Origin: Ktedonobacterales bacterium
Lineage (GTDB): Bacteria; Chloroflexota; Ktedonobacteria; Ktedonobacterales; JADMIN01
Direction: 5' to 3'
Assembly: GCA_036391835.1 (NCBI GenBank)
Contig: DASVZC010000114.1
Coordinates: 9,805 to 73,804, forward strand
Length of the DNA stretch: 64,000 bases
The notes beneath the pieces are model-generated. The model worked only from the letters and a program-made list of their open reading frames with translations, was not told where the DNA came from and ran no database searches. The stretch's first letter is position 1; the number at the start of each line of letters is the position of its first letter. The position numbers and the translations under genes are program-made. Below are positions 17,734 to 33,400 of this stretch, one piece after another.

Positions 17734-19029
17734 TCAGATGCGGCGGCGGCTCTTGCTGAGGGCTTTGCGCGAGAAGCTGAGGCTCAGGCCCTCGCGCAAA
17801 GCGAATTCTTGGTAGAGCGCGTAGAACTGCATGCGGTCGGGCGCCGAGATGACAGCGACTGCGTCCGCCGCTTCGATGGAGTAGGGATAGCCCGTTCCAG
17901 CGATCACCTCCGAACGGACGACATCCATCACGCGGTCGAGCAGGCCCGCATCTAGCACCCAGCGCGGAAATTCGATGCGCGCAGGCGGTCGGTCGAGCGC
18001 GGCCTGGAAGTAGACGAAACAGACCTCGTCGCTCGCGTTGTAGCCCACGCGCTCCACATCGTAGCGCGCGGAGACGAAGGCAGGCGTGCGGTCACCCCAA
18101 CCCAGTTCGCCGCGCCAGAGCAACGCATCGCTCACTCCGCCAACCGCGCCAGATCGCGTGTCGGGGCGTGTCTGGTCGTCAGCGAGGGCGCGCAACATCG
18201 CCACGATGTCGCGGGCATAGCTCGTGTCGATGTAGCCGATCAGCGGCACACCGCAGCGCTGCGACGCCTCCAGCATGCTGCGAGATGCGTTCACATAGCG
18301 CTCGCGGTAGGGCGGCGGCGACTTCAACGCGAAGGAGACGAGCAGGCTGCCATCGTAGAAGGCAATGACCAGCGGGGAGACCTCCCCATGCGCCTCGGCC
18401 TCCGCGCGGCGCTGCTGGTGGCGCTCCATCCGCTCGATGACGGTCTTCGTCTCCAACTCGAATCGGCGCAACTGGACGTAGCGATTGGAGTAGCCGATGT
18501 CGTCACCACTCCGGGTATCGAATTCGTCGGGCGCATCGCCTGTCAACTCTTCTGGCGTGAGCAACTCAACCACGACGTCTTTGATGTAGGGCTGCGGCGG
18601 CTGATGCGGATTCTCGAAAAGGCCCGCCTGAACCAGAGCAATGGGCGCAGAGGCATCGCGCCAGGGCGGAAGCTGGCTGCCATCCACCGCGAAGGTCGTG
18701 ACGCCGCGCACACGCTCCGCCCACGAATGCGACTCCTCGTGGCTGGCGAAACGCTCGCCAAACCGCAGCGTGGGGAAGCGCTCCGTGGTCGCCGCCCAAC
18801 GGTCATATTCCGGCGTCGGCAATGCGCCGGACGGCTGCTCGGGCTCCGGCTGCCGCGCCTGCCGTTCGCGCTGAGCAGCATCGAGCAGCACGGCAGTGGG
18901 ATAGCGTTGGCGCAGGCTGGCGAGCGCCGCACAGGAGTCGTTCAAACGGTCACCGTGCCGCGCCTGGTAGCTCAACAGCGACTCACGATGTCGCGCCATC
19001 TCCTCACGCAACTTGCCTGTATGCAGCAT
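17734..19029 (-). CDS. NurA-domain 5'-3' nuclease
   Basis: NurA hallmarks: TFAVDGSQ (catalytic Asp), PLIGYIDTSYARD, GYPYSIEAADAVAVIS. GAGGAG lies 8 nt upstream of ATG 19029. Confidence 0.8.
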   Translation of the reverse strand: MLHTGKLREEMARHRESLLSYQARHGDRLNDSCAALASLRQRYPTAVLLDAAQRERQARQPEPEQPSGALPTPEYDRWAATTERFPTLRFGERFASHEESHSWAERVRGVTTFAVDGSQLPPWRDASAPIALVQAGLFENPHQPPQPYIKDVVVELLTPEELTGDAPDEFDTRSGDDIGYSNRYVQLRRFELETKTVIERMERHQQRRAEAEAHGEVSPLVIAFYDGSLLVSFALKSPPPYRERYVNASRSMLEASQRCGVPLIGYIDTSYARDIVAMLRALADDQTRPDTRSGAVGGVSDALLWRGELGWGDRTPAFVSARYDVERVGYNASDEVCFVYFQAALDRPPARIEFPRWVLDAGLLDRVMDVVRSEVIAGTGYPYSIEAADAVAVISAPDRMQFYALYQEFALREGLSLSFSRKALSKSRRRI

Positions 19030-19077
19030 CGCGCTCGCTCCTCGCTATTTCAAGCACTCGGCTCGCCCTGCCCCACT

Positions 19078-19204
19078 CTCGGCCTTGAAAGGCCGGAGCA
19101 CGCGGACGGGCTTAAAAGCCCAAGGCGCCTGCCTGAGGCGGCGCAAAAGAGGGCTTTAGCCCCAGGCGCGCGGTGCGCCGGCCATTGATGGCCGCGACCC
19201 TGCC
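19078..19204. repeat. Structured intergenic repeat, copy A (127 bp)
   Basis: Aligns with 54570-54671. Shares ctcggcNttgaaaNgccggagcacgcggacg and gtgcgccggccattNatggccgcg blocks. Contains palindromes ggccttgaaaggcc, gggcttaaaagccc and ggccattgatggcc. Confidence 0.75.
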
Positions 19205-19210
19205 TCTCGC

Positions 19211-20689
19211 CTAATATCCCATAGTGGGGAGGTCGGTTGAGCAGAGCGGGCCCACCTGGAAGGAATAGGGATTCCCCGTGTTGGTGTCCTTGTAATAGGT
19301 GAACGCCTCTTGCGTCGAGGAGATCGAGCGATAGGTCGTCAGGTAATACGTCCCCTGCGCCACGTTGGCGAAGCTGTACGCGCCCGTCTTGGGGTCGAAG
19401 GTCGCCTTGTAGTCGTGCGAATAGATATTCGCATTGGTGTCGATGTTCTTCGAAAGATAGAGCGTCGGCACAGGATTGCTTGGCGTACCTGTCATGGTCC
19501 CCTTCACGGTCTGCGGCGCGGCGAGGGCAGTCTTCGCCTGCTGCCCCTGGCTCGTATCACCGTAGCGCGACGCAAGCGTCTGGTAGAGTGGTATCGCGGT
19601 GATGCAGTCCTGGCCTAGCACCTCCTGGCCAAGTGACCAGTAGGCGACGGCGCCCGCTGTGTGTGCTTTCCCTACAAATGTGCTCTTGCCGAACTGCGAC
19701 TGCACCAGGTCAAATTCCACGATTGCCTGCTTGAATTGGTTGGCCTTCGCCAGTTGCTCACCATACTGATAGTGCGCCTGGCCCTGCAGGTTGACGATCG
19801 AGGTCTTGCAGGTGGCGTCGCAGGCGGCGTCGTTGCTATAGGCCGCCAGGAATTCGAGCGACTGCTTGAATGGAAGCGTGATAGCGCCCGACGCGATCCA
19901 CTTACTATAGACGGTGTACTGATCGGCGCGGGCTCGCGTCACCAAATCGCCACTGTCGGGATATTTCTGAATGACGGTGGTAAGTTTCTGGGTCGCGCCA
20001 GCATAGTCACCGTGCTGCATCAGCATCTCGCCCCAGCCAGTGTAGGCGCGCGCCAGATTCGTCGATGTAGGGGGGCGCTCGCCCGCCTGGGTATATTCGT
20101 TTACCGCGAGTTCCCAGTTCCCAGCGGATTCCGCCTGGCTCGCCTGCGCGCGCCGCAAGGGATTCGCCTGCACGATGCCGCCGACGCCAGACGCCACGAG
20201 TGTCAGCGCCAGCAGTCCGGCCAGCACGATGCTGCCAAAAGAGCGGCGGCCAAGCGCCACGCGCGCGATCATCAGGCCGATGGTCACCAGCGCCAACGCA
20301 AATGCAGTCAGGCTCACCGCGAGCGCGCCGGTCGCCCAATCGCCGCCGAGCACTGCCGTCTCGACGATGAAGACCGCCGCCAGCGTCAGCAGCAGCGCGA
20401 TAGGCGCGCCCAGCGTCAGCCAGCCGGGGAACGGAAGCGCGAGCATATGCGCCTCGGTCCACTCCGTCGCGTCAGGATCTAGCTCATCGTATTCTGGATC
20501 GTAGTTGAGGGCAGCGTTTACTTCCGCGAGTGACCGCCGCATGTAGGGCGCAGGCGCGACAGGCCCGGGATACGCCATCGTCGGGGCTTCCGAGTAATCC
20601 TCCACCATCGCATCCACCATCTCTGGTTGGGGCGTGTTTGGTGTCGGGCGGGGAGCTGCTGATCGAGTTCGTCGGGTCCGGTCGTTCAT
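19211..20689 (-). CDS. Membrane-anchored protein with TPR-like helical repeats and C-terminal beta-rich domain
   Basis: Three to four TM helices (residues ~95-180), then helical repeats (NWELAVNEYTQAG..., HGDYAGATQKLTTVIQKYP...), then a Y/T/N-rich C-terminal domain. ATG 20689 preferred; GTG 20710 possible. Confidence 0.7.
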   Translation of the reverse strand: MNDRTRRTRSAAPRPTPNTPQPEMVDAMVEDYSEAPTMAYPGPVAPAPYMRRSLAEVNAALNYDPEYDELDPDATEWTEAHMLALPFPGWLTLGAPIALLLTLAAVFIVETAVLGGDWATGALAVSLTAFALALVTIGLMIARVALGRRSFGSIVLAGLLALTLVASGVGGIVQANPLRRAQASQAESAGNWELAVNEYTQAGERPPTSTNLARAYTGWGEMLMQHGDYAGATQKLTTVIQKYPDSGDLVTRARADQYTVYSKWIASGAITLPFKQSLEFLAAYSNDAACDATCKTSIVNLQGQAHYQYGEQLAKANQFKQAIVEFDLVQSQFGKSTFVGKAHTAGAVAYWSLGQEVLGQDCITAIPLYQTLASRYGDTSQGQQAKTALAAPQTVKGTMTGTPSNPVPTLYLSKNIDTNANIYSHDYKATFDPKTGAYSFANVAQGTYYLTTYRSISSTQEAFTYYKDTNTGNPYSFQVGPLCSTDLPTMGY

Positions 20690-20751
20690 TGTTGGATCAC
20701 TCCATAGCACTTGCGCGGAATATCTGCTCTAGAGTAGACACGGAGTTCGCA

Positions 20752-23700
20752 CTAGTCTGCGAACAGTGCGCTGAAACTCTCGCTGACACTCTCTCTCGCT
20801 CGCTCGGCGACCCTGTCGCCGTCGAAGCCATCCGAAAATGGCGTCGATGTAGCGAATGACGCGTCATCATCGCACACATACGTCGCTCCGCCGCGCTTCT
20901 CTAGGTGAATTACGCTATCCAATCCTTGCTCAAAGGTATCGTCGTGGCTGATGACGATGAGCTGATCGAAGCCGCGCACACGGCGAATCTGCTCAGCTAA
21001 AGCGCTCCGACGCTCCGCATCCATGTTCTGGGTAGGCTCGTCGAAGAAGGCCAGGTCGAGCCCTGTCAGGCGCCGCAACAGCGCGAGCCTGGTCGCCAGC
21101 GCCGCCGCCATCTGCTCGCCACCGCTGAGCAATGCAAAGGTGCGAACACTCGAGCCGCGCTTCAGCACGATCTCATACTCATCCTGCCAGGAAAGTTCCG
21201 CCGCGCGATCACCCATGATCTCGCCGAAGATGGTATTCGCCTGCGCCGAGATGTCTTTCAGCATGCGCTGCGTGACCAGCGGACCCGCCTCCTTGATCGT
21301 CTCACGGAACTGGTCGAGCATTCTCTGCGTATCGCGTAAATCCTCGCACTCGATGCGGGCGCTCTCGAGTTCCAGCAACTGCCGCTCGCATTGCGCGATA
21401 TGCGCCTCCAGCCGTCCCAGCAATTCCTCAGTGTGGCGCTGGGTCTCCCAGAGTTCACCACGGCGCGAGCGCAGGCCATTCGCCTGGCCGTGCGCCGCAT
21501 CGAGCGCCTGCGGATCGAACCGCTTCCGCGCTTCGGCCAGCGCCTCAGCGGCCAGCCGCGCATCTTTTGCGGTCTCCGCGTCACTAGCGATGGCGGCGGC
21601 ATGCTCGCGTGTGCGCTCGTCGAGTTGCTCGGCGGCGCGCTGATGCTGAAGATATTTTGTATGACCTGGCTGTGTCCGCTTCATGGTTATGTCGAGTTCG
21701 ACCAGTTCCTGCGCCAGCGTCGCGAAGGGAGCGAGCGCCGCGTCGAGCCGCGCCAATTCCGCATCGCCAGTGGAGATGGCTGCACGCGCCTGCGCGAGTC
21801 GCTGCTCCACCGTGGGACGTTCGGACGCCAGCGCCTGCTTGCCCGCCACCTCGCCACGTGGATCACCCAGGCGGGTCAATGCGGCGATGGCGGCGCGTTC
21901 GGCTTCGGGCGCGCCCGCCAGATCGGCGCAGGTCGCCTCGATGCGCGCAAGCTCGTCGGAGAGGTCTCGCAAGCGCTCGCGATGATCGTCTAGCTCACGC
22001 TGGGCGCCAGCCGCCGTCGCCAACTTCTTGTCCGCGGCCTCGCTCTCACGCAATGCGCGGCGCGCCTCGGCCAGCCCTTCCGTATCACCCGCCAGCGCTA
22101 ATGCTTGCTGAATCTCAGCCAGTTCGGCGCTGAGGCGGCCCTCAGTGGTCTCGCAGGTGTCGAGTTGTTCATTGGCCTGACGCAACTGGTCGTTGAAGTT
22201 CTCGAGTTGGGCATAGACGGCAGCGGCCTTGTTGGCGTCCTCTAGCTGCTTGGCCGCAGCATTCCGCTTGGCCTGCGCGGGGAGCAGCGCCACCTCGTCT
22301 ACAGAGATCAGTCGGTCGAAGTAGGTCGCGAGACTATTCTCGCCGCGCTGGCGGATGTTCTGGCAAGGCTCGCGCAGGAATGGACAGAGGCCCATGCCAG
22401 ACTGCTCGCGCGATTGTCGGTGCTGCTGCAGCCGCGTCTCGATCTCGCGCGCTGCCTGGTCGGCAGCCTCATGCGTTTCGGTCAGTTCCGGGATGCGCTC
22501 GACCAGCGGGCGATAAGACTCAAGTTTTCGCAGATTCTGCTGTTGGCGCGCCTGCAGTGCTGTCGCCTTAGCGCGGGCGCTGGCCACTTCGGCGCGCTCG
22601 GTGGCGATGGCCGCGCGACGCTGTTCGTGTTGCTGCCGCTGCGCGGCGACCGCCTGCAGAGATTCGACCCGCTTTCGCCGCTCGGCAAGCGCTTCCGCCA
22701 CTGGGCGCGCCGCCTCGATCTCCGCCACTTCGCGCTGCCGTTCGGCCACGCGCCGTTCGAGCATGACCCGCTTGGCGCCGCGATCTTCTAGCTGCGCGCG
22801 GAACTCGTTCAGCCGTGCGACATTCTGATGCGCGGTATCGCGGGCGCTCTCCAGGCTGATCTGCTGGGCAAGCGCAGGTTGGAGTTCGGTGACGCGCCGC
22901 TCGGCCTGCGCGATCAGGTCGATGCGCTCCTGTGCGTGGCGTTCATCGGCTTTGGCGCGTTCGTGCCGCTTGGCTACCTCTGCGCGCTGATCGCTCAGCG
23001 TCTCACGCTGACGCACGCGCTGTTGAGCGTCGGCTCGCGACTTTTCAGATTGCAGATATGCATCGTGGTCGGCGCGCGTCTCTGTGAGGATCTGAGCCGC
23101 CGCGCGCGACTCGCCAAGTAACTGCGCCGCCTGCGCCAGTCGCCGCTCAGCCGCTGTGTGCGTCGCCTCAGCCGCAGTGGCCGCGCCCTCACGCTGTGCG
23201 ACTTCCGCCTTCATCTCGTTCAGTTGGTTCACCAGCGCCTCGATGCGTTCGAGGTCGGCGCCAAGCGCTTCGAGTTCACGTGCGGTCGCCACACGCGTCT
23301 GCTGTCGCTCGTCGCGCTCACGCCGCCACACATCGATCTGCGCGACATCGCGCTCCAAGCCGGCGATGCGAACCGCCTGATCAGCCTCCTGCTCTCTGAG
23401 GTATTTAGCGGTCTCAATTAGCTTCTTTGCCGCATCGCCGTAGTCCTCCACCTGCAAGAGTTTGTCGAACTTGGTCTTGCGAACAGCAGGTGTCAGCAAG
23501 AAGTCTGCAGTAAGCATGCCCTGTGGCGTGCCGATGGCGCTGGCAAAGAGATCATCTAACTTGATCGCTCCGTCGATCCGCATATGATGCTTGAGAAAGT
23601 CGGTGACGTCGGCGCTGGAGTCAATGCGCGTGCCTGTTAGTGGATTGAAGATATACCAGTCTGAAGAAGCGCCAAGGCGGCGTGTGACTTCGTATTCACA

Positions 23701-23934
23701 CTCGTCCACAGGGGAGACGAAGGCCACCATGACCTTGCCAGTATTTGCGCCCTCACGCACGAACTGCTTCTGCTTATAGGGTAGATGATCGAAAAGCGCC
23801 CAGCCTATGGCTTCGAGCAAGGTTGACTTGCCCGCGCCGTTATGGCCGCGAATGGCCGTCACGCCGTCGCGCAGTCGAATGGAAGCGTGTTCATAGCTTT
23901 TGATATTGGTGAGTTCTACGCGAGTGATATGCAT
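20752..23934 (-). CDS. Rad50/SbcC-like SMC-family ATPase (1060 aa)
   Basis: Walker A IRGHNGAGKSTLLEAI, Q-loop TPQGMLTADF, about 700 aa of coiled coil with a mid-coil Cys pair GLCPFLREPCQN, signature LSGGEQMAAALA, Walker B LAFFDEPTQNMD, H-loop VISHD. GAAGGA Shine-Dalgarno sequence upstream of ATG 23934. Confidence 0.85.
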   Translation of the reverse strand: MHITRVELTNIKSYEHASIRLRDGVTAIRGHNGAGKSTLLEAIGWALFDHLPYKQKQFVREGANTGKVMVAFVSPVDECEYEVTRRLGASSDWYIFNPLTGTRIDSSADVTDFLKHHMRIDGAIKLDDLFASAIGTPQGMLTADFLLTPAVRKTKFDKLLQVEDYGDAAKKLIETAKYLREQEADQAVRIAGLERDVAQIDVWRRERDERQQTRVATARELEALGADLERIEALVNQLNEMKAEVAQREGAATAAEATHTAAERRLAQAAQLLGESRAAAQILTETRADHDAYLQSEKSRADAQQRVRQRETLSDQRAEVAKRHERAKADERHAQERIDLIAQAERRVTELQPALAQQISLESARDTAHQNVARLNEFRAQLEDRGAKRVMLERRVAERQREVAEIEAARPVAEALAERRKRVESLQAVAAQRQQHEQRRAAIATERAEVASARAKATALQARQQQNLRKLESYRPLVERIPELTETHEAADQAAREIETRLQQHRQSREQSGMGLCPFLREPCQNIRQRGENSLATYFDRLISVDEVALLPAQAKRNAAAKQLEDANKAAAVYAQLENFNDQLRQANEQLDTCETTEGRLSAELAEIQQALALAGDTEGLAEARRALRESEAADKKLATAAGAQRELDDHRERLRDLSDELARIEATCADLAGAPEAERAAIAALTRLGDPRGEVAGKQALASERPTVEQRLAQARAAISTGDAELARLDAALAPFATLAQELVELDITMKRTQPGHTKYLQHQRAAEQLDERTREHAAAIASDAETAKDARLAAEALAEARKRFDPQALDAAHGQANGLRSRRGELWETQRHTEELLGRLEAHIAQCERQLLELESARIECEDLRDTQRMLDQFRETIKEAGPLVTQRMLKDISAQANTIFGEIMGDRAAELSWQDEYEIVLKRGSSVRTFALLSGGEQMAAALATRLALLRRLTGLDLAFFDEPTQNMDAERRSALAEQIRRVRGFDQLIVISHDDTFEQGLDSVIHLEKRGGATYVCDDDASFATSTPFSDGFDGDRVAERARESVSESFSALFAD

Positions 23935-24297: not shown

Positions 24298-24326
24298 TAG
24301 ACAGCTTGGGTAGTCTCTGTTAGAAT
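24298..24326 (+). promoter_or_regulatory. Candidate sigma-70 type promoter with extended -10 (TAGACA-17 nt-TAGAAT, TGT immediately upstream of -10)
   Basis: -35 TAGACA at 24298-24303, 17-nt spacer, TGTTAGAAT at 24318-24326. About 94 nt upstream of ATG 24420. Confidence 0.5.
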
Positions 24327-24419
24327 GCCCCCAATAAGTGTGGTGTGTGTTGGTACTCTCGTCCTATGCGACATGCGATAAGCTGCTAGACACAGGACAC
24401 GCACGAAGGAATGATAGAC

Positions 24420-25421
24420 ATGTGGCGTCGGGATAAGCGCCCCACGGGCACAGAAGCTCCCATGGACGAAGAGGCTCAGCGAGCGGCTCGGCAGGCGATA
24501 TGGCTTTCTCAACTCTATGCGCGAAACTGGATGTTCATCACTCCAGAGGTTCAGGCCGCCTTACAACGCAAAGTCTTGTTCGCGGCTGGCGTAGGAGGAG
24601 CCAGCCACATTGTCACGCTGGCGTGCCGCACGGGCTTGACGAAATTCATCGTGGCCGATGACGACACCGTAGAGACCACGAACCTCAATCGTCAGGCATA
24701 TCAAGTCGAGCACCTGGATCAAAACAAGGCAGCCGCCCTTGCGGATATCTTGCGCTCGATCAGCCCAGATGTGCAGGTCGAGGTCATGAGGGGCAAGATC
24801 AATGAGCAAAACTACATGGATGGTATCGCGCGCTCAGATTTTGTCATCAACTCGATTGATTTCGAGCAGCCAGCATTTTTACTGCTGAATCGAGTGGCGC
24901 AGGCGGCGGGGAAAACCGTGCTGCTGCCGCTCAATCTCGGATGGATCGGCGTGCTCCTGGTCTTTACGCCGGAGTCTCCAACCCTCGACCAGTTTCTGGG
25001 AATACGAACTGGCCAGGTAGGCGGCCTCGATGTCGCCAGCCGCCTGATCGAACGTGTCGTCACAGGCTTGCCACCGTCGGGCCAACAGTATCTAGCCGAA
25101 CCTTTGAAGCAGTTCGCCAAGCGCGACAAGGCGTGGCCCGGCGACCCACAACTCGGCGCGGCAGTCTATGCCACCGCCGCGCTCGCTGCGCGTGTGATTG
25201 TCGCAGCAACTGCGAATGAACCTGTACGGGTCGTGCCAGAGGTCGTCTATGCAGATCTTTTCGGGCAGGTGACGCCTGGCGAGACTACCGCGGGAGCGAG
25301 CCAACCAGCGGCGGCGCCTCCCAAAAGTGATCTATCTATCAGCACAAACGCATCAGACCAAGGCGGCGACGTCGCGAGTACGCCTGATGATCTCGAGGAT
25401 GAGGAACAGAAGGCAAGCTAA
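24420..25421 (+). CDS. E1/ThiF/MoeB-family adenylyltransferase-like protein (no CxxC zinc motifs; acidic low-complexity tail)
   Basis: VLFAAGVGGASHIVTLACRTGLTKFIVADDDTVETTNLNRQ is the ThiF/E1 nucleotide-binding signature. Only one Cys in the whole protein. ATG 24420 lies 10 nt after GAAGGA; ATG 24411 is an alternative. Confidence 0.85.
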   Translation: MWRRDKRPTGTEAPMDEEAQRAARQAIWLSQLYARNWMFITPEVQAALQRKVLFAAGVGGASHIVTLACRTGLTKFIVADDDTVETTNLNRQAYQVEHLDQNKAAALADILRSISPDVQVEVMRGKINEQNYMDGIARSDFVINSIDFEQPAFLLLNRVAQAAGKTVLLPLNLGWIGVLLVFTPESPTLDQFLGIRTGQVGGLDVASRLIERVVTGLPPSGQQYLAEPLKQFAKRDKAWPGDPQLGAAVYATAALAARVIVAATANEPVRVVPEVVYADLFGQVTPGETTAGASQPAAAPPKSDLSISTNASDQGGDVASTPDDLEDEEQKAS

Positions 25422-25539
25422 TCGCGCAAGGTGGCGGCGGGAAACATCCAGCAGAGCACACGCTCATGCATGGCTGGCGAAGGAATATTCTGTTCTCAAC
25501 CAACCAAACGGTTTTCAGCCGCATCGCACTCCAAGGTCG

Positions 25540-27027
25540 ATGCAGGAGAATAGATACGTGGCAGATCAACCCTCCGCACATGTACCAATGTCGCTCGTAG
25601 ACAGTAAAGCTACGAGACGGCAATCGCAGGGCAGCGCCTGGGCTCCTTACTCAGCCACACGAGATGATGGGGATAGTGCGCCTGGTGGCCTGACACGGCA
25701 TCTCGCGGCGCGCATCGCACGTACACTCGCCGTGTTGGCGCAACCTGAGGCTAGCCGCATCCTGGTAGTTGAGCCACATTCCTCCATTTTGCCCGAGGCT
25801 CTGCGCACAAGCGACCCTTCCTGTGATCTCTGGGCGTTGCGTCGGGAGTCGTCACACTCAGTTCCCGCATTCGACCACGAAGTCATGGGCGATTGGCTGA
25901 CTGGCGATGAGTCGCTAACGGAACGACTGGGCGAGTTTGATGTGGTCGTCGTCTCCGGGCTCGTACGTCTCGTCTCTCGCGCAGGCCTCCCACGCATCGT
26001 CGGGTGGCTGGCGCGGCTCGTTCGCGAGCGGGGTTATCTGCTGCTTTGTGAGCCCTCGCCACCACTCTCCGCAGACTTTCTCGAAGACCTCATCCGCGAG
26101 AACGACTGCATCGTCGCGGCCGACCAGGAAACGATCGATGACGGCTGGACATATCGCCTGATCGCGGGCCAACGGCACGCCAGTGACATGATCTCCCATA
26201 TCGCAGGCATTCAGTCCATCAATTGGGACGACCTTCAACGCGAGCCAAAACTTCGCAGCGCGCTAGTAAACGCCTACCGCATCGTCTTCGGCGGCAAGGA
26301 GTGGCGCGAATGGATGCGTTGCACGGCCACCGAATGTGGGCGCCAATACAGCCAGGAAGAATATGTAGCGGAGTGTCTGCCGCTTGGCGATCGCTGCCTC
26401 TGCGGGCGTAGCGGTACGCTGGTTCCCGTGCACGCGCCCGAGAAAGTGATCGAGATGCTGCGCACGGAACTGCTCGAACCTGCCGAGAGTTGCTGCTATG
26501 TCCGACTCAACGACAGCAGGCATGTAGAAGCTTTCTGTTGGGGTTATGTTGACAGTACCCGTTCGCTTGCGCGCTTGCTTGGGGCAAGCGATAATAGTGC
26601 ACGCCACGCGATTGAGCAAAGTCTGGAAGCCTACGTCGACGACTGCGAATTTGACACTCCAGATGCGCGTATCTATCGTTTGGCGGAAGGTGGGATCACG
26701 CAGGAGGCGCGCAACGGTCATCTGACCTATGCGCTGCTGCAACGGTTACTGCAATGGTCATATGATCACAATGTGCAGGTCGTCATCGGCCGTACATCGC
26801 CACGCACACCCATGTATGCGATCTTCCGCGGTCTCGGTATGGAAGTTATCTATCGGTATGACCAGGGCGCGGAGAACGGGGGGGATACCAGCCATCGGCA
26901 GAAAGATGACCGGGTGATCTTAGCGGGCTCTGTACTTCCAATGCTCCAAGCGGTAGCGACTGAATCGACTCGGCGATTATCCTGGCGCATAGCTCAACAA
27001 ATGCGCGTGGAACGTGGGGCCGGGTGA
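25540..27027 (+). CDS. Multidomain hypothetical: degenerate class-I methyltransferase-like N-domain + Cys-cluster + GNAT-like C-domain
   Basis: The N-domain resembles the SAM-MTase fold (FDVVVVSGLVRLVSRAGLPRIVGWLARLVRERGYLLLCEP), but motif I reads ILVVEPHSS with no Gly-rich loop. Centre: RCTATECGRQYSQEEYVAECLPLGDRCLCGRSG. The C-domain call (ALVNAYRIVFGGKEWREW ... GITQEARNGHLTYALLQRLLQW) is weaker. Start uncertain: ATG 25540, or GTG 25558 after AGGAG. Confidence 0.65.
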   Translation: MQENRYVADQPSAHVPMSLVDSKATRRQSQGSAWAPYSATRDDGDSAPGGLTRHLAARIARTLAVLAQPEASRILVVEPHSSILPEALRTSDPSCDLWALRRESSHSVPAFDHEVMGDWLTGDESLTERLGEFDVVVVSGLVRLVSRAGLPRIVGWLARLVRERGYLLLCEPSPPLSADFLEDLIRENDCIVAADQETIDDGWTYRLIAGQRHASDMISHIAGIQSINWDDLQREPKLRSALVNAYRIVFGGKEWREWMRCTATECGRQYSQEEYVAECLPLGDRCLCGRSGTLVPVHAPEKVIEMLRTELLEPAESCCYVRLNDSRHVEAFCWGYVDSTRSLARLLGASDNSARHAIEQSLEAYVDDCEFDTPDARIYRLAEGGITQEARNGHLTYALLQRLLQWSYDHNVQVVIGRTSPRTPMYAIFRGLGMEVIYRYDQGAENGGDTSHRQKDDRVILAGSVLPMLQAVATESTRRLSWRIAQQMRVERGAG

Positions 27028-27068
27028 AATGTCCGGCCGAGAGGCTGGGGATATGTGGAGAGTGAGAA

Positions 27069-28121
27069 ATGCGCCAAGTTCCAAATTCACCGCAGCAATA
27101 CGGATCACAGGTTCCGGCTGCGCTGAGCGGGTCGATGACAGACGACGTGGAGGAGACGAGGCCCAATATTTGGCTCCGTCTCACAAGTTGGGGCTGGAAC
27201 CATCGTCTAGTCACCGTTGAGGAACGTGAGCAGGCTCGCCGAAGCCGACTAGCCTCTTGGCTGATTCTCGGATTACTGGTGTTCGAGATTCTGCTGCTAC
27301 CGGCAGGTAAAGAAATCACGACGACATTCATCGCCGTAGTCGTGGCGATCATTGGCACACTTTTTGTCGCCTTCTTCGTCAACCGCGCTGGCTATGTCAA
27401 CGCTGCTGGCATCATCCTGGCGGTTCTCTTCTCGGGCGCGCTGATGGGCGCCGTGGTCGGCTCGCCGGGCGGCTACCTCGATACCGTGTATCTCCCCGCC
27501 TATGACCTGTTCGTGATTCCAGTCGGGCTAGTGGCTGCGATTGTGCGCCCGCGCTATGCGATCTTCCTGACGACACTCGGCTGTATCATGCTGATCGTCG
27601 GCGACTTCTACGCGCAACCCATCCGTGGCGATCTGGCGCACTGGATGATCATCGAAGGCGCGGTGCCATTGCTGGCTCGGCCTATCGCGCTGCTGACGTT
27701 TATGGGTATCCTCTCGTACCTGGTGGCTCGCAGTACTGACGACGCGATTCGCCGCGCTGACCGTGCGGAAGAAATCGCCCGCCTGGAAAGCGTCGTGGTC
27801 GAGCAGAAACGCGCGCTCGATCAAGGCGTGTACGAACTGACGCAGGCGTTCGTCCGCGCGGCCAACGGCGACTATAGCTCGCGGGTGAATATTCCCCGGC
27901 AGAACCCGTTGTGGAGTCTGGGCGCACAGATGAATACATTCGTCCAGCGGTTGCAGCAGGCGGGACAGTCGACATTTGAACTAGAGCGCACACGCCAGGA
28001 GGCGTTCCGGTTGGTGTCCGCGCTGGACGACTGGCGCGCCGGGCGCATGCCACTGTGGCCCGCGCCTTCTGGCACGATGCTCGACCCGATCATTCAGCGG
28101 TTGAGCGGCGGCAGGCAGTAG
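27069..28121 (+). CDS. Multi-TM membrane protein with cytoplasmic HAMP-like coiled segment (no output domain)
   Basis: GGAGAG Shine-Dalgarno sequence. Five to six hydrophobic helices, then ...IRRADRAEEIARLESVVVEQKRALDQGVYELTQAFVRAANGDYSSRVNIP...LGAQMNTFVQRLQQ, which is HAMP-like. Confidence 0.7.
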   Translation: MRQVPNSPQQYGSQVPAALSGSMTDDVEETRPNIWLRLTSWGWNHRLVTVEEREQARRSRLASWLILGLLVFEILLLPAGKEITTTFIAVVVAIIGTLFVAFFVNRAGYVNAAGIILAVLFSGALMGAVVGSPGGYLDTVYLPAYDLFVIPVGLVAAIVRPRYAIFLTTLGCIMLIVGDFYAQPIRGDLAHWMIIEGAVPLLARPIALLTFMGILSYLVARSTDDAIRRADRAEEIARLESVVVEQKRALDQGVYELTQAFVRAANGDYSSRVNIPRQNPLWSLGAQMNTFVQRLQQAGQSTFELERTRQEAFRLVSALDDWRAGRMPLWPAPSGTMLDPIIQRLSGGRQ

Positions 28122-28155
28122 CGGCAGGCAGTAGTAGCGGCAGGCGATAGACGCG

Positions 28156-28196
28156 ACGAGCGGGCTGGCGAGAGAGTGAGACGCCAGCCCGCTCGT
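28156..28196 (+). terminator. Rho-independent terminator (15-bp stem, T-rich tail)
   Basis: acgagcgggctggcg / 11-nt loop / cgccagcccgctcgt followed by TTTGTT. Lies 35 nt after the stop at 28121. Confidence 0.7.
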
Positions 28197-28206
28197 TTTG
28201 TTCGTC

Positions 28207-28971
28207 CTATTCTTCCTCGATGCCGGCTACTCCATCCTCTAGCGCTTCGGTGGGCAGTGGCGCAGTGGGCGCGCCAGCCGTCGCGCCATAGCCAGCGTCG
28301 AGCGACACCCACGCGAGTCGGCTGCCAGCGCCGATGTCGCGGACGTGCAGGTTGTCGTTGTAACGGCTCAGCCGCCAGGTCTCGTACCCGCCGATGCGCT
28401 CGCGTTCCCAATGGGTGATGGAGGTGTTGCGGGTGTGAAACTGACCCGGCGCGGGAGCCGTCGCCCCCACACCCAGTCCGATCAGCAACGATGCGTCGAT
28501 CACGCCGCCGTGGCAGACAACGGCGATGGTCTTCCCCGCATGCTGGCGCACCACGCGATACATAAAATCCCCGACGCGTGCAACGAAACCACCCCAACTC
28601 TCACCCCCAGGCGCAAAGGGATGATATGGATCTTCGCGGAAGTCGCTAAAGGCCCCGTAACGCTCGAGAAACTCGCGAACGCTCATGCCATCAGCCTCAC
28701 CTGGGCGCAACTCATGCGCATCATCATCGGGAATGATATCCAACCCCAGCGCAGGCGCGATGATCTCGGCAGTCTGGCGGGCGCGGGGTAGTGTACTAGC
28801 GATGAGGACATCAGCGGGAATTTCCCGCGTAGTGGCGAGTCGGTCACGCAGGCGCTCCGCCTGGAGAACTCCAAGGTCAGTCAAGCCAAGGTCAGTCTTC
28901 ATGCCCGCAAGTGTACCTTCGACATTGCAGACAGCTTCGCCATGCCGTATCAGATAGAGATGAGTAGCCAT
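28207..28971 (-). CDS. Histidine phosphatase (phosphoglycerate mutase-like) family protein
   Basis: LYLIRHGEAVCN (RHG motif) and VVCHGGVIDA. Confidence 0.85.
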   Translation of the reverse strand: MATHLYLIRHGEAVCNVEGTLAGMKTDLGLTDLGVLQAERLRDRLATTREIPADVLIASTLPRARQTAEIIAPALGLDIIPDDDAHELRPGEADGMSVREFLERYGAFSDFREDPYHPFAPGGESWGGFVARVGDFMYRVVRQHAGKTIAVVCHGGVIDASLLIGLGVGATAPAPGQFHTRNTSITHWERERIGGYETWRLSRYNDNLHVRDIGAGSRLAWVSLDAGYGATAGAPTAPLPTEALEDGVAGIEEE

Positions 28972-29051
28972 CCTGAGAATTATCCTTCAAATCCTTCGCA
29001 TCCACTCAGTCAGTCCGATGCAGCGCAACGGACCCTAATGCTGTTCGATCT

Positions 29052-29933
29052 CTACGCAGGGAACGCCTCTTCGATCGCCGCGATGAAGTCGCCGGGCTGT
29101 GTGAGTGCGCTCAGATGTCCCATTGTAGTCAGCAATCGCGTGTACGCAAGTGGATAGGCCGCGCGCAGAGCGGCGCGCTCCACCGCTTCGATGACATGAT
29201 CGTAGGCTGCATCGAGAATGAGCACGCGCCCAGGCTCGCCAGCCAATTTGGCGGGAGGAGCCGCGCGCCCGGCGAGAAATTGCTCGATGATGCGGCCGTG
29301 TCCGAGCATGGCGCGCTTGCTAATGCGCGCCGCCATCTCGATGAAGTAGCCGCGCCAGAAGAGGTAGTCTGCTGCAGAGAGACCAGGAGACTCGCGCCAG
29401 AGCGGCAATCCGGCGCCTGCGCGTAAGGCGCCACGCAGCAGTGAATCGGGAGTCGCGGCAAGCAATGAGTATTGCACACGCACCATGCGGAGGGCCGCCG
29501 GAGCAGGGCCGCCCGTGTTGCAGAGCACGAGGCGATCAACCAGATCGGGTCGACGCTCGGCCAACGCCTGCGCCAGATAGCCGCCCATCGAGTAGCCGAC
29601 GACGAGCGCGGGCGCGCCTACATGCTCCAGCAGGGTGGCCAGGCCAGCGCATACGTCATCTAGCGAGTTCAATTCGTCGGGGTAGGTGGGCGCGATGACG
29701 GTGTAGTGGCGTTCGAGCAGAGACATCGCGCCAAAGAGTGACTCGGCGTCGCTCTCACTACCATGCAGCAAAAGCGCCACGCGCTCGCCGCTGCCGCCAA
29801 TGAGGTACGTCCACGTATGCCAGCGCACATCGAGTGATGTTGGCGGGTGGCTGGCGCGAAACAGGCGAAGATGATCATGCCAGGAGGATGGCATGGAGAT
29901 AGGGTGAGCAGGAATCACGAAATCATTCACCAC
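29052..29933 (-). CDS. Alpha/beta hydrolase
   Basis: LLLHGSESD and nucleophile elbow VGYSMGGYLA. Start is GTG 29933 or ATG 29894. Confidence 0.8.
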   Translation of the reverse strand: MVNDFVIPAHPISMPSSWHDHLRLFRASHPPTSLDVRWHTWTYLIGGSGERVALLLHGSESDAESLFGAMSLLERHYTVIAPTYPDELNSLDDVCAGLATLLEHVGAPALVVGYSMGGYLAQALAERRPDLVDRLVLCNTGGPAPAALRMVRVQYSLLAATPDSLLRGALRAGAGLPLWRESPGLSAADYLFWRGYFIEMAARISKRAMLGHGRIIEQFLAGRAAPPAKLAGEPGRVLILDAAYDHVIEAVERAALRAAYPLAYTRLLTTMGHLSALTQPGDFIAAIEEAFPA

Positions 29934-30142
29934 CGCACCTCCCGAGGTCCCGCTTTACCCTTCGCCTGACGCCTGTTTCAGCCACACATCCAGCGTCTAT
30001 CATTAGCATATTACGTCAGGATAAGCAGATGCTGAGGAACTCGTCAACCCTTGCTTGTATCAACGCAGGAACCAGATGAGGCGTTTCCGCGTCATGGAGA
30101 TATGCGGCGCGAGATGCGCGCCACGAATTCAGGGGGAATGGC

Positions 30143-30676
30143 ATGATCCGACTTGGTAGACACGGCGCCCATCAAACATCGCGAATGTGGAACACGCTGG
30201 CGCTGGCAGGCGCGCTCACAGTGATGCTCGCGCTCGTCGCCTGTGGCTCATCTGGGGCCACTGCGGGAAAGTCATCCGCGGCTACAGCGACAACCCAGGC
30301 AGGTGGCTCTATTCCTGGCGGCGGAATGGCGATCAGGCCGTGCCCAGGGGCGCCCGGCGACGCTACCCAGGTTGGCGCGCTCGCGCTGGTGCTGACATCG
30401 GGCGTCGCATCGGGGACACTGCATGTGGGTGAGATGGCACAGGTACGTCTGCCCGCCTCGTTGCATTGGACCCTCGAAGGCCAGACAAATCACCTGAAAG
30501 GTGTCGGCAGCGCAGGAGCGCAAGATAGCGCACTCAATGTCTGCTACTGGACATTTCAGGCAGATTCTGCCGGAAGCGTGACCCTCCACTTCTCGGGTGT
30601 CCAGCCGTGCGAAGGGCCAACAGGTGGCTGCTCCAGCGCCGTCACCGAGCAAGACTTCACCATCACCGTGGCGTAG
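30143..30676 (+). CDS. Putative secreted lipoprotein
   Basis: Signal peptide with lipobox LALVAC-G. Beta-rich mature region with no recognised family. Confidence 0.6.
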   Translation: MIRLGRHGAHQTSRMWNTLALAGALTVMLALVACGSSGATAGKSSAATATTQAGGSIPGGGMAIRPCPGAPGDATQVGALALVLTSGVASGTLHVGEMAQVRLPASLHWTLEGQTNHLKGVGSAGAQDSALNVCYWTFQADSAGSVTLHFSGVQPCEGPTGGCSSAVTEQDFTITVA

Positions 30677-30705
30677 GCGAGGCGGGCGTCGCGGCCAGCA
30701 AGGAT

Positions 30706-30732
30706 GCTGGCATCGCTGGCATCGCTGGCATC
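30706..30732 (+). repeat. Perfect 9-bp tandem repeat GCTGGCATC x3
   Basis: 30706-30714, 30715-30723 and 30724-30732. Lies about 20 nt upstream of a TAGAAT hexamer (30751-30756) and about 95 nt upstream of ATG 30826. Confidence 0.8.
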
Positions 30733-30825
30733 GCGGTTGTGCGGTTGGGGTAGAATGGTGGCTAGCGCTGGCGGAACACGGGACGCTTGGCGCCCGACGC
30801 GCTCAACCTGCGGCAGGAGACACCC

Positions 30826-33219
30826 ATGCTCGCGGACACGCCGGCCATCAACACCAATCTGCCCACCCCAATCTCCACTTTCATTGGACGAGAGCGCGCG
30901 CTCGGCGAGATAGCACGGCTACTCACACGAGAACGCCTTGTCACGCTCACTGGCCCCGGCGGAACAGGCAAGACGCGCCTCGCCTTGCGTGTTGCGGCAA
31001 GCGAATTGGCCGCATTTCCTGATGGCGTCTGGCTGGTCGAACTCGCGCCCATCGCCACGCCAGAACTGGTAGCAGAGACCATCGCCAAAGTGGCGCATGT
31101 AACCGGAGATGGCGCCGCTCCCCTGCTGGAGGCGCTAGCGCATGGCCTCGCGAAGATGCGCCTGCTGCTCGTGCTCGACAATTGCGAACACCTGCTCGGC
31201 GAATGCGCGCGCATCGTGGCGTATCTGCTGGCGCGCTGCCCAGCATTGGCGGTGATCGCGACGAGCCGTGAGCCGCTGGCGATTGGTGGCGAGCGCGTCG
31301 TGCGTGTGCCACCGCTGGAACTGCCCGCTAGCTCAGAGCCATTGGACGAGGAGCGTTTGCTCACGTTCGATAGCATTCGCCTGTTTCTCGAACGCGCACA
31401 GGCTGCCGAGCCTTCGTTTCGTTTCTCAAGCGTGACAGCGCCTGCGGTTGTGGAGATTTGCCGCCGATTGGATGGCATTCCGCTAGCGCTGGAGTTGGCG
31501 GCGATGCGCGTGCGCGGGATGGGCGTCGCCTATTTGGGCGCGCGGCTAGACGACCGCTTCCGATTGTTGACGGCAGGCGCGCATGCGACGGAGCCACGCC
31601 AGCAGACGCTCAATGCGGCGGTCGCCTGGAGCTATGATCTACTCTCCGAACGCGAGCGCGTGGTCATGCGGCGGCTTGGCGTATTTGCTGGCGATTTCTC
31701 GCCGGAGGCCGCCGAAGCCGTCTGCATCTCAGCAGGTGAGGATACATCGGATGCCACCGGCAGCGTGTTCGACATCCTGACACGGCTGGTCGATAAATCG
31801 CTCGTGCAATTCGATCAGTCGACGGGGCTCTACCGCCAACTCGAAACGATTCGCCTGTATTGCCAGCATCAACTCGACGCCGCTGGCGAACAGAATCATC
31901 TGCGCCGCCAACACTTCGCGTACTACCTGAACCTCGCCGAAGATGGCGCGGCGCTCCTCGGTGGACCCGGACAACTCGGGTGGTTCGCGCGGCTAGAGCA
32001 AGAGCACGACAACTACCGTGCGGCGCTGAGTTGGGCGATTGCGGAAGAACACGCGGAAGACGCGGCGCGGCTCGCGCTGAGCCTCTGGCAATTCTGGCAC
32101 GCACGCACCTACCAGCGCGAAGGCATGCGCTGGCTGGAGCAGGCGCTTGCGTTGGAGCCACGCCATCCGCTGCCGCCAGCGATGCGCGCAAGGCTATTGA
32201 ATGCGCTTGGCTCGCTGGCGAATGTCGCCAGGCGCCTTGACCGTTCGAAGGCCTACCACGAAGAAGCGCTGCGCCTGTGGACGGCTGCGGGCGATCAGGC
32301 GGGCATGGCGCAGGCATTGTGCGACCTCGGCTGGGTCTTCTTCGAGGAGGTCAACATTGAAGAGGCGATGCGTTATGCCGATGAGGGCTTGCCGCTGGCC
32401 GAGGTGAGTGGGGATAAGAGGCTGCTCGCCCATGCGTTGTTGCTCAAGGGTCTGCTCGAAACGCAACACGATTTCACTGGCTCCGCGGATCCAGCACAGA
32501 TGCGCCGGGCAGCGGCGACGCTCGAACGCAGTCTCGCGATCTGGCGCGAATTAGGTGATCAGAGCAGCGAGGCTGCGACACAGGCGACACTGGCCGCTAA
32601 CTATGCGGGACTTGGAGATGACGAGCGCGCGAAACCGCTGCTGCTCGCATCGGCACGGTGGTATGTGCAGTCGGGCGATTCCGGCAACATCAATGGCACG
32701 CTGGTCATTCTGATGAACCTTGCAGGCAAATGGGCTGCCGATCCGCAGATGGCCCGCGATTCGGCGCGTATTCATGGCGCAATGCTAAGCCTGTTGGGCG
32801 CCGTCACCGAAGAACCCTCACCGTGGGAGACGTCAGAACCTGCTCTGGCGATGGAACGCCGACTGACGAAGACGTTGGGGACGGAGGGCTATGCGCAGGC
32901 GCTCGCCGAGGGCAGGCATATGACCCGCAACGAGGTGTTTGCGGTTGCAGAGCGCATCACCCGGCCTGCCAACCAGACCATCGCTCCCGCGACGCGCCCA
33001 ACGCCAATGGTTCCACCGACGCCGCATGCCAGCCTTACACGTCGCGAGCTCGATGTGCTGCGGCTCGTATCGCAGGGCATGACCAACGCCCAGGTGGGAC
33101 GCGAACTTGTCATCACTCCGCGCACCGTCAACGCGCATCTGACGTCGATCTATGGCAAGTTGGGGGTCGTCTCACGCAGCGGAGCCATCCGCTATGCGGT
33201 GGATCACGCGCTCGGCTAA
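30826..33219 (+). CDS. LuxR-family regulator with N-terminal STAND/AAA ATPase and TPR region
   Basis: Walker A LTGPGGTGKTRLAL, Walker B LLLVLDNCEH, TPR-like middle region, C-terminal HTH LTRRELDVLRLVSQGMTNAQVGRELVITPRTVNAHLTSIYGKLGV. ATG 30826 lies 5 nt after AGGAGA. Confidence 0.85.
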   Translation: MLADTPAINTNLPTPISTFIGRERALGEIARLLTRERLVTLTGPGGTGKTRLALRVAASELAAFPDGVWLVELAPIATPELVAETIAKVAHVTGDGAAPLLEALAHGLAKMRLLLVLDNCEHLLGECARIVAYLLARCPALAVIATSREPLAIGGERVVRVPPLELPASSEPLDEERLLTFDSIRLFLERAQAAEPSFRFSSVTAPAVVEICRRLDGIPLALELAAMRVRGMGVAYLGARLDDRFRLLTAGAHATEPRQQTLNAAVAWSYDLLSERERVVMRRLGVFAGDFSPEAAEAVCISAGEDTSDATGSVFDILTRLVDKSLVQFDQSTGLYRQLETIRLYCQHQLDAAGEQNHLRRQHFAYYLNLAEDGAALLGGPGQLGWFARLEQEHDNYRAALSWAIAEEHAEDAARLALSLWQFWHARTYQREGMRWLEQALALEPRHPLPPAMRARLLNALGSLANVARRLDRSKAYHEEALRLWTAAGDQAGMAQALCDLGWVFFEEVNIEEAMRYADEGLPLAEVSGDKRLLAHALLLKGLLETQHDFTGSADPAQMRRAAATLERSLAIWRELGDQSSEAATQATLAANYAGLGDDERAKPLLLASARWYVQSGDSGNINGTLVILMNLAGKWAADPQMARDSARIHGAMLSLLGAVTEEPSPWETSEPALAMERRLTKTLGTEGYAQALAEGRHMTRNEVFAVAERITRPANQTIAPATRPTPMVPPTPHASLTRRELDVLRLVSQGMTNAQVGRELVITPRTVNAHLTSIYGKLGVVSRSGAIRYAVDHALG

Positions 33220-33400
33220 CGCCACGTGCGCCCCCACTCCGTTGAACCTAACACTCTGCTCCCCTACGCGACAGCCGCAGAAAGACTGTTAGACCTAACG
33301 ATGCGCCCGCCTCTCCCGCCAAGTAGAGTTTGAGCAATCCCTGGAGCGCTCGGGTCCAGGTGACATCGCCAGTATGAACAGTGGAAGGGTGGGAGTAGGC

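Follow-up and report, generated by a model that had tools for sequence, protein, structure and literature searches.

Here we describe a three-gene operon in a 64,000-nucleotide stretch of Ktedonobacterales DNA (contig DASVZC010000114.1, assembly GCA_036391835.1), hereafter the window, to which all positions refer unless a related locus (L001, L002 and so on) is named. The window's closest public relatives are metagenome-assembled genomes (MAGs) of Ktedonobacterales (Chloroflexota). Comparison of the operon with related loci suggests a chromosomal three-component Ktedonobacterales system, in which a membrane component encoded by gene 3 is combined with interchangeable cytoplasmic enzymes. Three co-directional open reading frames (ORFs), at 24411/24420-25421, 25327/25540-27027 and 27069-28121 on the forward strand, make up the operon in the ORF list, and the features assigned to it are as follows.

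24298-24326, forward strand: sigma-70-type promoter found by consensus scan (TAGACA, 17-nt spacer, TAGAAT, TG extended -10)
24327-24419, forward strand: 5' leader with a GAAGGA Shine-Dalgarno sequence and a 7-codon mini-ORF (MRHAISC-stop), from alignment with L001
24420-25421, forward strand: gene 1, 333-aa ThiF/E1-fold adenylyltransferase (PF00899; alternative ATG at 24411)
24588-24605, 24657-24695, 24723 and 24849-24860, forward strand: ATP/Mg motifs of gene 1, respectively GVGGAS, DDDTVETTNLNRQ, NK and NSID
25263-25418, forward strand: acidic low-complexity C-terminal tail of gene 1 (52 aa, 10 D/E versus 2 K/R)
25540-27027, forward strand: gene 2, 495-aa fusion protein (ATG conserved in L001)
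25687-26205, forward strand: N-terminal class I methyltransferase (Rossmann) fold domain of gene 2, from AlphaFold and Foldseek
26206-27024, forward strand: C-terminal GNAT-fold domain of gene 2, from the family profile and Pfam matches in family members
26320-26403, forward strand: four-Cys zinc-ribbon insert of gene 2 (C261-x4-C266 ... C286-x-C288)
27069-28121, forward strand: gene 3, 350-aa membrane protein
27243-27728, forward strand: about six transmembrane (TM) segments of gene 3, from hydrophobicity
27834-27959, forward strand: HAMP-like region of gene 3, from Pfam
28050-28076, forward strand: conserved C-terminal PLWPAPSGT motif of gene 3, cytoplasmic
28156-28203, forward strand: intrinsic terminator with a 16-bp perfect stem (28156-28196), an 11-nt loop and a TTTTGTT tail

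The promoter agrees with the consensus at 10 of 12 positions, and L001 and L002, two relative loci of 86-94% identity, have an identical copy. Alignment of the leader with relatives gave 92% identical columns, above the expectation for a spacer, and an Rfam search of the leader matched no RNA element. The terminator, which sits between convergent genes, folds with -40 kcal/mol (z = -6.3; 0 of 200 shuffles fold equally well), and was missed by a consensus terminator scan because its loop is 11 nt long. Promoter, co-directional genes and terminator are all as described in an initial annotation of the window made from sequence alone. The start of gene 1 was placed at 24420 on account of the spacing to the GAAGGA sequence and the gene call in L001, and that of gene 2 at 25540 because this ATG is conserved in L001. 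The mini-ORF (24366-24389) is in frame with gene 1 and is not kept as an ORF in L001 (upstream of position 2812), which has CAG for TAG; the upstream ATG of L001 therefore runs uninterrupted into gene 1. At the other end of the operon, gene 3 closes with a 13-nt sequence (CGGCAGGCAGTAG) that contains its stop codon and is present in three tandem copies (28109-28121, 28122-28134 and 28138-28150), the terminator stem following shortly downstream.

The initial annotation had further called the operon AT-rich and suggested a foreign origin on the basis of hand-counted lines. These GC counts proved exact (29/60 at 24781, 28/60 at 24841, 30/60 at 26521 and 32/60 at 27301, against 46/60 at 22561), and the operon region is indeed the GC minimum of the window, falling among the lowest 2.3% of windows of the same size. 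The label is nevertheless overstated, given that the region has 59.0% GC versus 62.6% for the whole window, a mild deviation of about 2.3 standard deviations (SD 1.6%) below same-size windows, and is not AT-rich in absolute terms. The dip is limited to genes 1 and 2, with GC contents at third codon positions (GC3) of 0.64 and 0.62; gene 3 is typical (0.72), and several other window genes are equally low. The case for foreign origin is likewise weak: the low GC3 of genes 1 and 2 and their closest relatives, an actinobacterial ThiF and GNAT pair described below, speak for it, but genes 2 and 3 lie within a conserved Ktedonobacterales block.

Gene 1 matches the ThiF family in Pfam (PF00899) with E = 1.7e-23, and an alignment of 21 members of its family shows R35, the DxD motif, NLNRQ, K103 and the Mg-binding D147 to be invariant. 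Its adenylation core begins at about residue 30 and is thus preceded by some 30 residues, and its acidic tail is lineage-specific, most homologues being without it. The only Cys, residue 69, lies in ACRTG (24621-24635) in the helix just past the nucleotide loop; the gene 1 sequence contains no crossover-loop Cys, nor does it have a CxxC pair or an RRE, the recognition element of RiPP pathways, whose peptides are made by the ribosome and modified after translation. The ThiF/E1 signature, single Cys, absence of CxxC and RRE, and acidic tail had all been correctly recognized at the outset. Given that the Cys lies outside the crossover loop and that CxxC and RRE are absent, we infer that adenylation proceeds without thioester or persulfide chemistry. 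A search for a ubiquitin-like protein (Ubl), ThiS or MoaD found no open frame ending in GG within 20-32 kb of the window, and gene 1 has no rhodanese domain. Gene 1 is likely to be an enzyme that adenylates without recourse to a Ubl or sulfur carrier.

Profile scores indicate that gene 1 is not an orthologue of ThiF, MoeB or TcdA, every equivalog score for these families being far under its cut-off. Against NCBIfam models it obtained 91 bits for ThiF (cut-off 159), 75 for thiF_fam2 (152), 45 for MoeB (449), 29 for MoeZ (647) and 33 for TcdA (304), and it was also far under the curated cut-off for UbaA; its top NCBIfam match by E-value was the ThiF model PRK08644. The nearest solved structure is an uncharacterised 265-aa ThiF-fold protein (9egb/9egc/9egd, E = 4e-21), of which chain residues 16-263 in 9egb/9egc align with gene 1 residues 32-283 at about 30% identity; no publication or function for 9EGB, 9EGC or 9EGD was found in the literature searched. 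An uncharacterised model, PRK08223, matches gene 1 over residues 34-284 with E = 6.6e-25 (88 bits, cut-off 266). Both are about 30% identical to gene 1 and resemble it in their short architecture, which is devoid of zinc sites and RRE.

The sequence of gene 2 has no Pfam match of its own. Homologues were sought by a word-index search, which returned one, and by an exhaustive HMMER search against 1.84 billion protein cluster representatives, which returned 72, making this a very rare family. Structure prediction with AlphaFold reached a pLDDT of 40 from the single sequence; the model built with the 72-homologue alignment (pLDDT 89.4, pTM 0.88) was used instead. Foldseek matched the N-terminal half to class I S-adenosylmethionine (SAM) methyltransferases (E ~4e-7, target-normalised TM ~0.58), although the Gly-rich E/DxGxGxG motif is absent, motif I reading ILVVEPHSS (25759-25785; family consensus RxLxxEPxS). 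The zinc-ribbon Cys residues are invariant or nearly so across the family. For the C-terminal half, the family profile matches GNATs in the Protein Data Bank (PDB; 1vkc, E = 3e-8), including the beta4-alpha3 region of the GNAT core, and Pfam matches among the 72 homologues comprise 16 to Acetyltransf_1 (PF00583) and 3 to Methyltransf_23, in addition to some to zinc ribbons. Matches to Acetyltransf_1/7/10 within the family place this GNAT in the classical type; a YRxVFGGxEWREW motif is conserved in it, and its CoA-pyrophosphate loop is atypical (R391-NGHLT, with RSLSL in the family, versus R/QxxGxG/A), R391 being conserved. Foldseek, the PDB profile and Pfam matches in the family thus bear out the composition first proposed for gene 2, namely a methyltransferase-like fold with ILVVEPHSS, a Cys cluster and a GNAT half. 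The pseudo-methyltransferase domain and the zinc ribbon are probably substrate- or partner-docking modules.

Gene 2 is only 29-34% identical between the window and syntenic genomes, as compared with 86-88% for Mfd, 57-61% for gene 3 and 60% for the SMC-like protein encoded upstream, and by these sequence identities it evolves much faster than its neighbours. A chimeric gene 2, with a resident N-terminal and a foreign C-terminal domain, was considered and dropped for want of a clear signal, both halves being 25-42% identical to all relatives. In many homologues of gene 2 the C-terminus coincides with, or closely follows, a Gly-rich R-x-x-R-G-x-G tail (RGAG, GQQG, RGEG, RQRG or RQGG; 27004-27024 in the window), which recalls E1 substrates but is modelled as a helix, and many gene 2 loci are without ThiF. 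A distant relative of gene 2 (23% identity), a standalone zinc-ribbon GNAT, was seen in a gammaproteobacterial MAG (L011 3239-8319) next to an aromatic amino acid ammonia-lyase, an M20 peptidase and a histidyl-tRNA synthetase, a context of amino acid metabolism.

Gene 3 has six hydrophobic segments and was correctly annotated as a HAMP-like membrane protein with no output domain: none (HisKA/HATPase, MCP signal or GGDEF) was found among its Pfam matches. Its HAMP match is weak (E = 0.0014; 19.4 bits versus a gathering score of 25), and HAMP is matched by 13 of 62 homologues at E <= 0.01, the best at 9e-6. Comparison of the gene 3 profile with the PDB gave no match. At least 288 clusters belong to the family; none of those listed has a name that indicates function, and all listed clusters bearing an organism name are from Ktedonobacterales.

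Close homologues of gene 1 were collected by a protein search and a metagenome scan, and their neighbours were mapped with hidden Markov models. The order gene 1, gene 2, gene 3 is found in the window, L001, L007 and L020. Genes 2 and 3 occur without gene 1 in L006, L009/L015, L010, L016 and L012; in L003, L004, L022/23 and L031, genes 1 and 3 are accompanied by an alternative second gene (alt-g2), and in at least six distinct loci (L021, L024 and L026-L029) ThiF and alt-g2 form a single fused ORF followed by gene 3, a fusion found also in P0017. Within the metagenome scan, whenever a gene 1 homologue reaches at least 41% identity and sufficient sequence is available downstream, gene 2 or alt-g2 comes next and gene 3 after it. 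The exception lies outside that scan, in L008 of Microbispora rosea, where gene 1 is paired with a GNAT-only gene 2 in the absence of gene 3; trivial relatives aside, the window's genes 1 and 2 find their closest counterparts in this pair (57% and 41% identity). Genes 2 and 3 overlap by 4 nt in L006, L010, L012 and L020. Alt-g2 had no Pfam match, no PDB match and no profile relationship to gene 2, and its FRLRQYxLCGLYD motif is a lead only toward proteins like LuxI or the N-acyl amino acid synthases (NAS).

Because all three pairwise associations occur independently, these genes are best regarded as a functional system with swappable modules, and it is very likely that the trio constitutes one system. 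Linkage in many loci thus upholds the proposal that the trio is conserved across genomes as a unit. Synteny of gene 2 with E1-like genes in particular holds in the window, L001, L007, L020 and L008, but not in those sister genomes in which a methyltransferase replaces ThiF, which is not an obligatory component. This replacement takes place within a chromosomal block with the order NurA, TPR membrane protein, Rad50/SMC-like gene (reverse strand), variable enzyme, gene 2, gene 3, His_Phos_1 (reverse strand) and, farther away, Mfd. The variable position is occupied as follows.

Window, L001, L007 and L020: ThiF on the forward strand, then gene 2 and gene 3
L006, L009/L015, L010 and L016: bona fide class I methyltransferase on the reverse strand, then gene 2 and gene 3
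L017: a domain of no assigned family fused to that methyltransferase, then gene 3 directly, with no gene 2

The methyltransferases that displace ThiF give Pfam matches to PCMT (protein carboxyl methyltransferase). They were seen to have acidic, Ala/Glu/Pro-rich N-terminal low-complexity regions of 150-200 aa (L006 4319-5689, L009 4386-5651 and L015 3695-4996, all on the reverse strand); both types of enzyme at the variable position thus bear acidic disordered extensions, that of gene 1 being C-terminal.

Homologues of gene 1 at 28-39% identity, which lack gene 2, alt-g2 and gene 3 alike, were surveyed as a separate, distant set. ThiF is followed by a GH3 acyl-acid amido synthetase and a HisKA_7TM kinase in L038, L039, L042, L043 and L052, and stands with GH3 alone on short contigs that end early in L037, L040, L041 and L044. 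Elsewhere it precedes a FeeM-like protein (weak match), a 7TM kinase and a response regulator (L019), a 515-aa protein of no known fold and a kinase (L047 and L056), or a kinase directly (L033, L049, L050 and L051). The PDB matches of the GH3 neighbours are JAR1 and GH3.x amido synthetases, and GH3 enzymes and FeeM-type N-acyl amino acid synthases both make N-acyl amino acid conjugates, as GNATs, which are N-acyltransferases, could also do. All partners that could be identified by fold (GNAT, FeeM-like and GH3) are from families that acylate amino acids or other amines, and the other recurrent neighbour across gene 1 loci is a multi-TM signalling-type protein. A co-operonic pattern of ThiF, amide-forming enzyme and membrane sensor was not found described in the searchable literature.

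The initial annotation had reported no known E1 partner, listing as established partners those of sulfur carrier, E2/JAB and RiPP systems. No Ubl, E2/JAB or RiPP partner was found here either, but that list is incomplete, as it omits a fourth class, the N-acyltransferases of OxzAB, TyzACB and TrzAS; the statement is also too strong, because gene 2, through its GNAT half, offers an obvious candidate for the N-acyltransferase partner. In OxzAB, from Pseudoalteromonas rubra, a ThiF-like cyclase acting on N-acyl amino acids is paired with an N-acyltransferase (bioRxiv 10.1101/2020.06.11.147165), and OxzB, TyzB of TyzACB (PMC10404671) and TrzS of TrzAS from Mycobacterium tuberculosis (PMC12856293) all use ATP to cyclise N-acyl amino acids to oxazolones. 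OxzB, TyzB and TrzS each have an adjacent N-acyltransferase and a flavin-dependent oxidase, and stieleriacine clusters combine an N-acyl amino acid synthase with a methyltransferase and a ThiF protein (PMC12479983). The operon shares with the oxazolone systems a ThiF protein that stands without Ubl, E2 or RiPP partner beside a putative acyl-CoA-type N-acyltransferase of the GNAT superfamily, and would share with them the adenylation of a small-molecule carboxylate and cyclisation of the product, with no Cys chemistry. TyzB, with 318 aa, is moreover a standalone ThiF of about 300 aa, comparable to the 333 aa of gene 1, whose architecture would suit a ThiF-like cyclase working without a protein partner. 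The operon differs from these systems in that (i) no flavin-dependent oxidase is fused or adjacent, (ii) its candidate N-acyltransferase is a classical GNAT with a zinc ribbon, fused to a pseudo-methyltransferase, rather than a FeeM/LuxI-like synthase, (iii) a dedicated 6TM/HAMP-like protein is present, and (iv) ThiF is replaceable by a methyltransferase. Because the oxidase is missing, the GNAT is classical and gene 1 is not a TrzS orthologue, the operon is not a member of this group and is better described as a variant that probably works like the oxazolone systems.

Taken together, these comparisons make the small-molecule option of the initial proposal, an uncharacterised adenylation system, its best reading. 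That the operon specifies an oxazolone-synthetase-like small-molecule pathway lacking a flavin oxidase and coupled to a membrane sensor-like protein is plausible, though still short of probable. In such a pathway, the GNAT domain of gene 2 would N-acylate an amino acid or a similar amine-carboxylate, and gene 1 would then spend ATP to adenylate the free carboxylate of the N-acylated product. Because gene 1 has no catalytic Cys, the acyl-adenylate could not pass to a thioester or persulfide; it would be resolved by an intramolecular nucleophile or that of a second substrate to give a charge-neutral cyclised product, as with OxzB, TyzB and TrzS. Where a class I methyltransferase stands in for ThiF, as in the sister genomes, it would convert this carboxylate to a methyl ester and so neutralise it. 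Gene 3, with six TM segments and a HAMP-like region, would be a membrane sensor or transducer of the product, or possibly its handler. The identity of the substrate and the chemistry of the product, drawn as they are from genomic context, are put forward tentatively, and gene 3 may be a product sensor in view of its position, its likeness to HAMP and a single kinase-adjacent case (L018, described below).

Several observations weigh against this pathway. No flavin-dependent oxidase of the nitroreductase family was found in genes 1-3, in their immediate neighbours or in the related loci examined, although all oxazolone pathways characterised so far include this enzyme; the gene 2 GNAT is classical, with an atypical CoA motif, and is not of the FeeM/NAS/LuxI-like subfamily to which OxzA and TyzA belong; and gene 1 scores only 33.5 bits on the Rv1355c (TrzS) family model, for which the cut-off is 476. 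Gene 3 is without an output domain, and homology of its TM region to HisKA_7TM was rejected (hhalign probability 0.1%). Alt-g2 has no fold identifiable by Pfam, PDB or profile comparison, and all functional assignments made here derive from genomic context.

Modification of protein, rather than small-molecule synthesis, is an unlikely alternative, in which the enzymes would act on gene 3 or another protein and thereby tune a HAMP-type transducer: ThiF by adenylation, or the alternative methyltransferase by carboxyl methylation in the manner of CheR on chemoreceptors, would modify a carboxylate, and the GNAT would acetylate a lysine or N-terminus. Such a role would suit gene 3 as the most widespread component, around which diverse enzymes are swapped, as it would the PCMT matches of the displacing methyltransferases and the conservation of PLWPAPSGT at the cytoplasmic C-terminus of gene 3, and most characterised ThiF-family enzymes do have macromolecular substrates. 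However, the ThiF and GNAT pair of Microbispora exists without gene 3, the GH3 or FeeM-like partners of distant ThiF relatives come from families with small-molecule substrates in all characterised members, complete kinases in the distant operons end in catalytic domains that would be poor E1 substrates, and gene 2 is predicted to terminate in a helix and not in a flexible tail.

Equally improbable is a role in envelope lipid synthesis, whereby genes 1 and 2 would make an N-acyl amino acid-type lipid with gene 3 as scaffold, flippase or acceptor. The enzyme logic would be identical to that of the oxazolone-like pathway, and six TM segments without an output domain would be compatible with it. 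Oxazolones and N-acyl amino acids are, in addition, partly cell-associated (PMC12856293, PMC10404671), and the physiological role of oxazolone products was stated by the authors to be unresolved (PMC12856293). HAMP-like domains are signalling modules, however, the partners of distant ThiF relatives are bona fide sensor kinases and not transporters, and a kinase and response regulator adjoin gene 3 in L018.

The initial annotation had also raised a conflict system, and defence based on an E1-like enzyme, as in Cap2 of the CBASS anti-phage systems or in Bil, is very unlikely. PADLOC E1-E2 models match gene 1 in its E1 core alone (residues ~50-166), which is generic E1 similarity; rapid divergence of gene 2, at about 30% identity between genomes whose Mfd is 86-88% identical, and the swapping of the enzyme cassette between genomes would fit a conflict system as well. 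The operon and the Pfam content of its neighbours nevertheless include no E2, JAB or Ubl of the kind found in CBASS Cap2/Cap3, Bil or Bub systems, and no effector or cyclase; genes 2 and 3 have no PADLOC or PHROG matches. In a plasmid collection gene 2 had no match and gene 1 gave only distant ThiF-family matches, namely solitary ThiF genes in Riemerella and Vibrio. The position between Rad50/SMC-like and housekeeping genes is conserved in many Ktedonobacterales, and no defence island surrounds the operon.

A microcin C-like or other RiPP pathway is extremely unlikely, even though the E1-like, class I methyltransferase-like and GNAT folds of the operon superficially parallel MccB, MccD and the C-terminal domain of MccE, the last providing immunity (PMC12250964). 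RiPP ThiF-like enzymes (MccB, PaaA, GrcB and EnfB) possess an N-terminal RRE/peptide clamp of about 90 aa (PMC12250964), whereas gene 1 has none and only about 30 residues before its adenylation core, and the methyltransferase-like domain of gene 2 is without a SAM motif. The 7-codon ORF in the leader invites comparison with a microcin heptapeptide, but it ends in Cys and not in Asn and loses its stop codon in L001, so that a conserved precursor is missing and this candidate was rejected; neither a transporter, such as a major facilitator superfamily exporter, nor a peptidase was found. Finally, an ordinary ThiF, MoeB or TcdA with its partners elsewhere in the genome, as the PF00899 match and the best NCBIfam E-value (PRK08644) might imply, is hardly credible in view of the sub-threshold scores given above (91 versus 159, 45 versus 449 and 33 versus 304 bits), the absence of a crossover-loop Cys, zinc site or rhodanese domain, and a tight association within operons, extending to fusions, with gene 3 and with either gene 2 or alt-g2.

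The genes around the operon complete the description of the locus. Upstream of it the window contains the following.

17734-19029, reverse strand: NurA
19211-20710, reverse strand: TPR membrane protein
20752-23934, reverse strand: Rad50/SbcC/SMC-like ATPase, 1060 aa

This stretch (17734-23934) has the appearance of a DNA-repair gene block, and SbcD/Mre11 was not seen among the ORFs scanned. The SMC-like gene is also found upstream of the gene 2/gene 3 locus in L006, L009/L015, L016 and L017; beyond it, the relatives have an ORF of similar size, with a faint TPR match in L015, and the position of NurA falls outside the stretches compared. Synteny of the Rad50/SMC-like, NurA, His_Phos_1 and alpha/beta hydrolase neighbours is kept, with no functional tie to the operon. 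Downstream, Mfd (36446-40006 in the window) directly follows gene 3 in L006 and L010, and is separated from it by about 8.3 kb in the window (28207-36445) and by about 7 kb in L015. His_Phos_1, an alpha/beta hydrolase, a small exported-looking protein and an NB-ARC/TPR/GerE regulator lie in the window gap; the hydrolase was not seen in L015. The interval between gene 3 and Mfd is an indel hotspot adjoining the operon.

Thioesterases of the 4HBT_2 family adjoin the ThiF/alt-g2 loci L003 (6050-7374, reverse strand) and L026 (2869-4420), and these neighbours hint at acyl-chain chemistry. Upstream of the ThiF::alt-g2 fusion of L026, a radical-SAM-like gene of 339 aa and the 4HBT_2 hotdog thioesterase are arranged divergently; ORFs of the same sizes occupy these positions in L030 (3078-4649) and L022 (72-1561), the radical-SAM-like ORF of L022 giving a weak match and the L030 ORFs being likened by size. 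In L003 the thioesterase lies beside an unrelated 246-aa ORF with no Pfam match. In L018 (4346-10074), which has no ThiF, alt-g2 and a zinc-ribbon protein come after a homologue of gene 3 (42% identity); divergently upstream lie a soluble 306-aa HisKA/HATPase kinase without sensor domain and an OmpR-type response regulator, an arrangement that may represent a split sensor kinase.

Precedent for a synthase encoded together with the receptor of its product is provided by Ralstonia, in which the PhcB methyltransferase, a carboxylate-neutralising enzyme, gives rise to a diffusible acyl signal that is perceived by the co-encoded membrane sensor kinase PhcS. Distant gene 1 relatives are similarly co-operonic with 7TM histidine kinases. 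The window differs in that there is no sequence relationship to PhcB/PhcS and gene 3 has no kinase domain, and production and sensing of a signal are hypothetical here. By extension of the oxazolone-like pathway, one could speculate on an as yet unrecognised and phylogenetically wide class of signal synthase-receptor cassettes, in which a ThiF cyclase or carboxyl methyltransferase, together with an amide-forming enzyme (GNAT, FeeM-like, GH3 or alt-g2), would yield N-acyl amino acid derivatives with their charge neutralised, oxazolones or esters for instance, to be sensed by a co-encoded multi-TM protein. That this sensor would be a 7TM histidine kinase in several phyla and a kinase-less 6TM-HAMP protein in Ktedonobacterales is a similarly doubtful proposition.

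Small-molecule ThiF/E1 enzymes were recognised only between 2020 and 2025, and the locus adds to them an unusual natural swap, at one chromosomal site, of ThiF for a class I methyltransferase, along with a rare pseudo-methyltransferase/zinc-ribbon/GNAT family and a large membrane protein family of no known function. Together with its relatives, it recasts the purpose of oxazolone lipids as a testable synthase-receptor hypothesis. If the wider class of cassettes exists, oxazolone-type lipids would gain a physiological role as signals.

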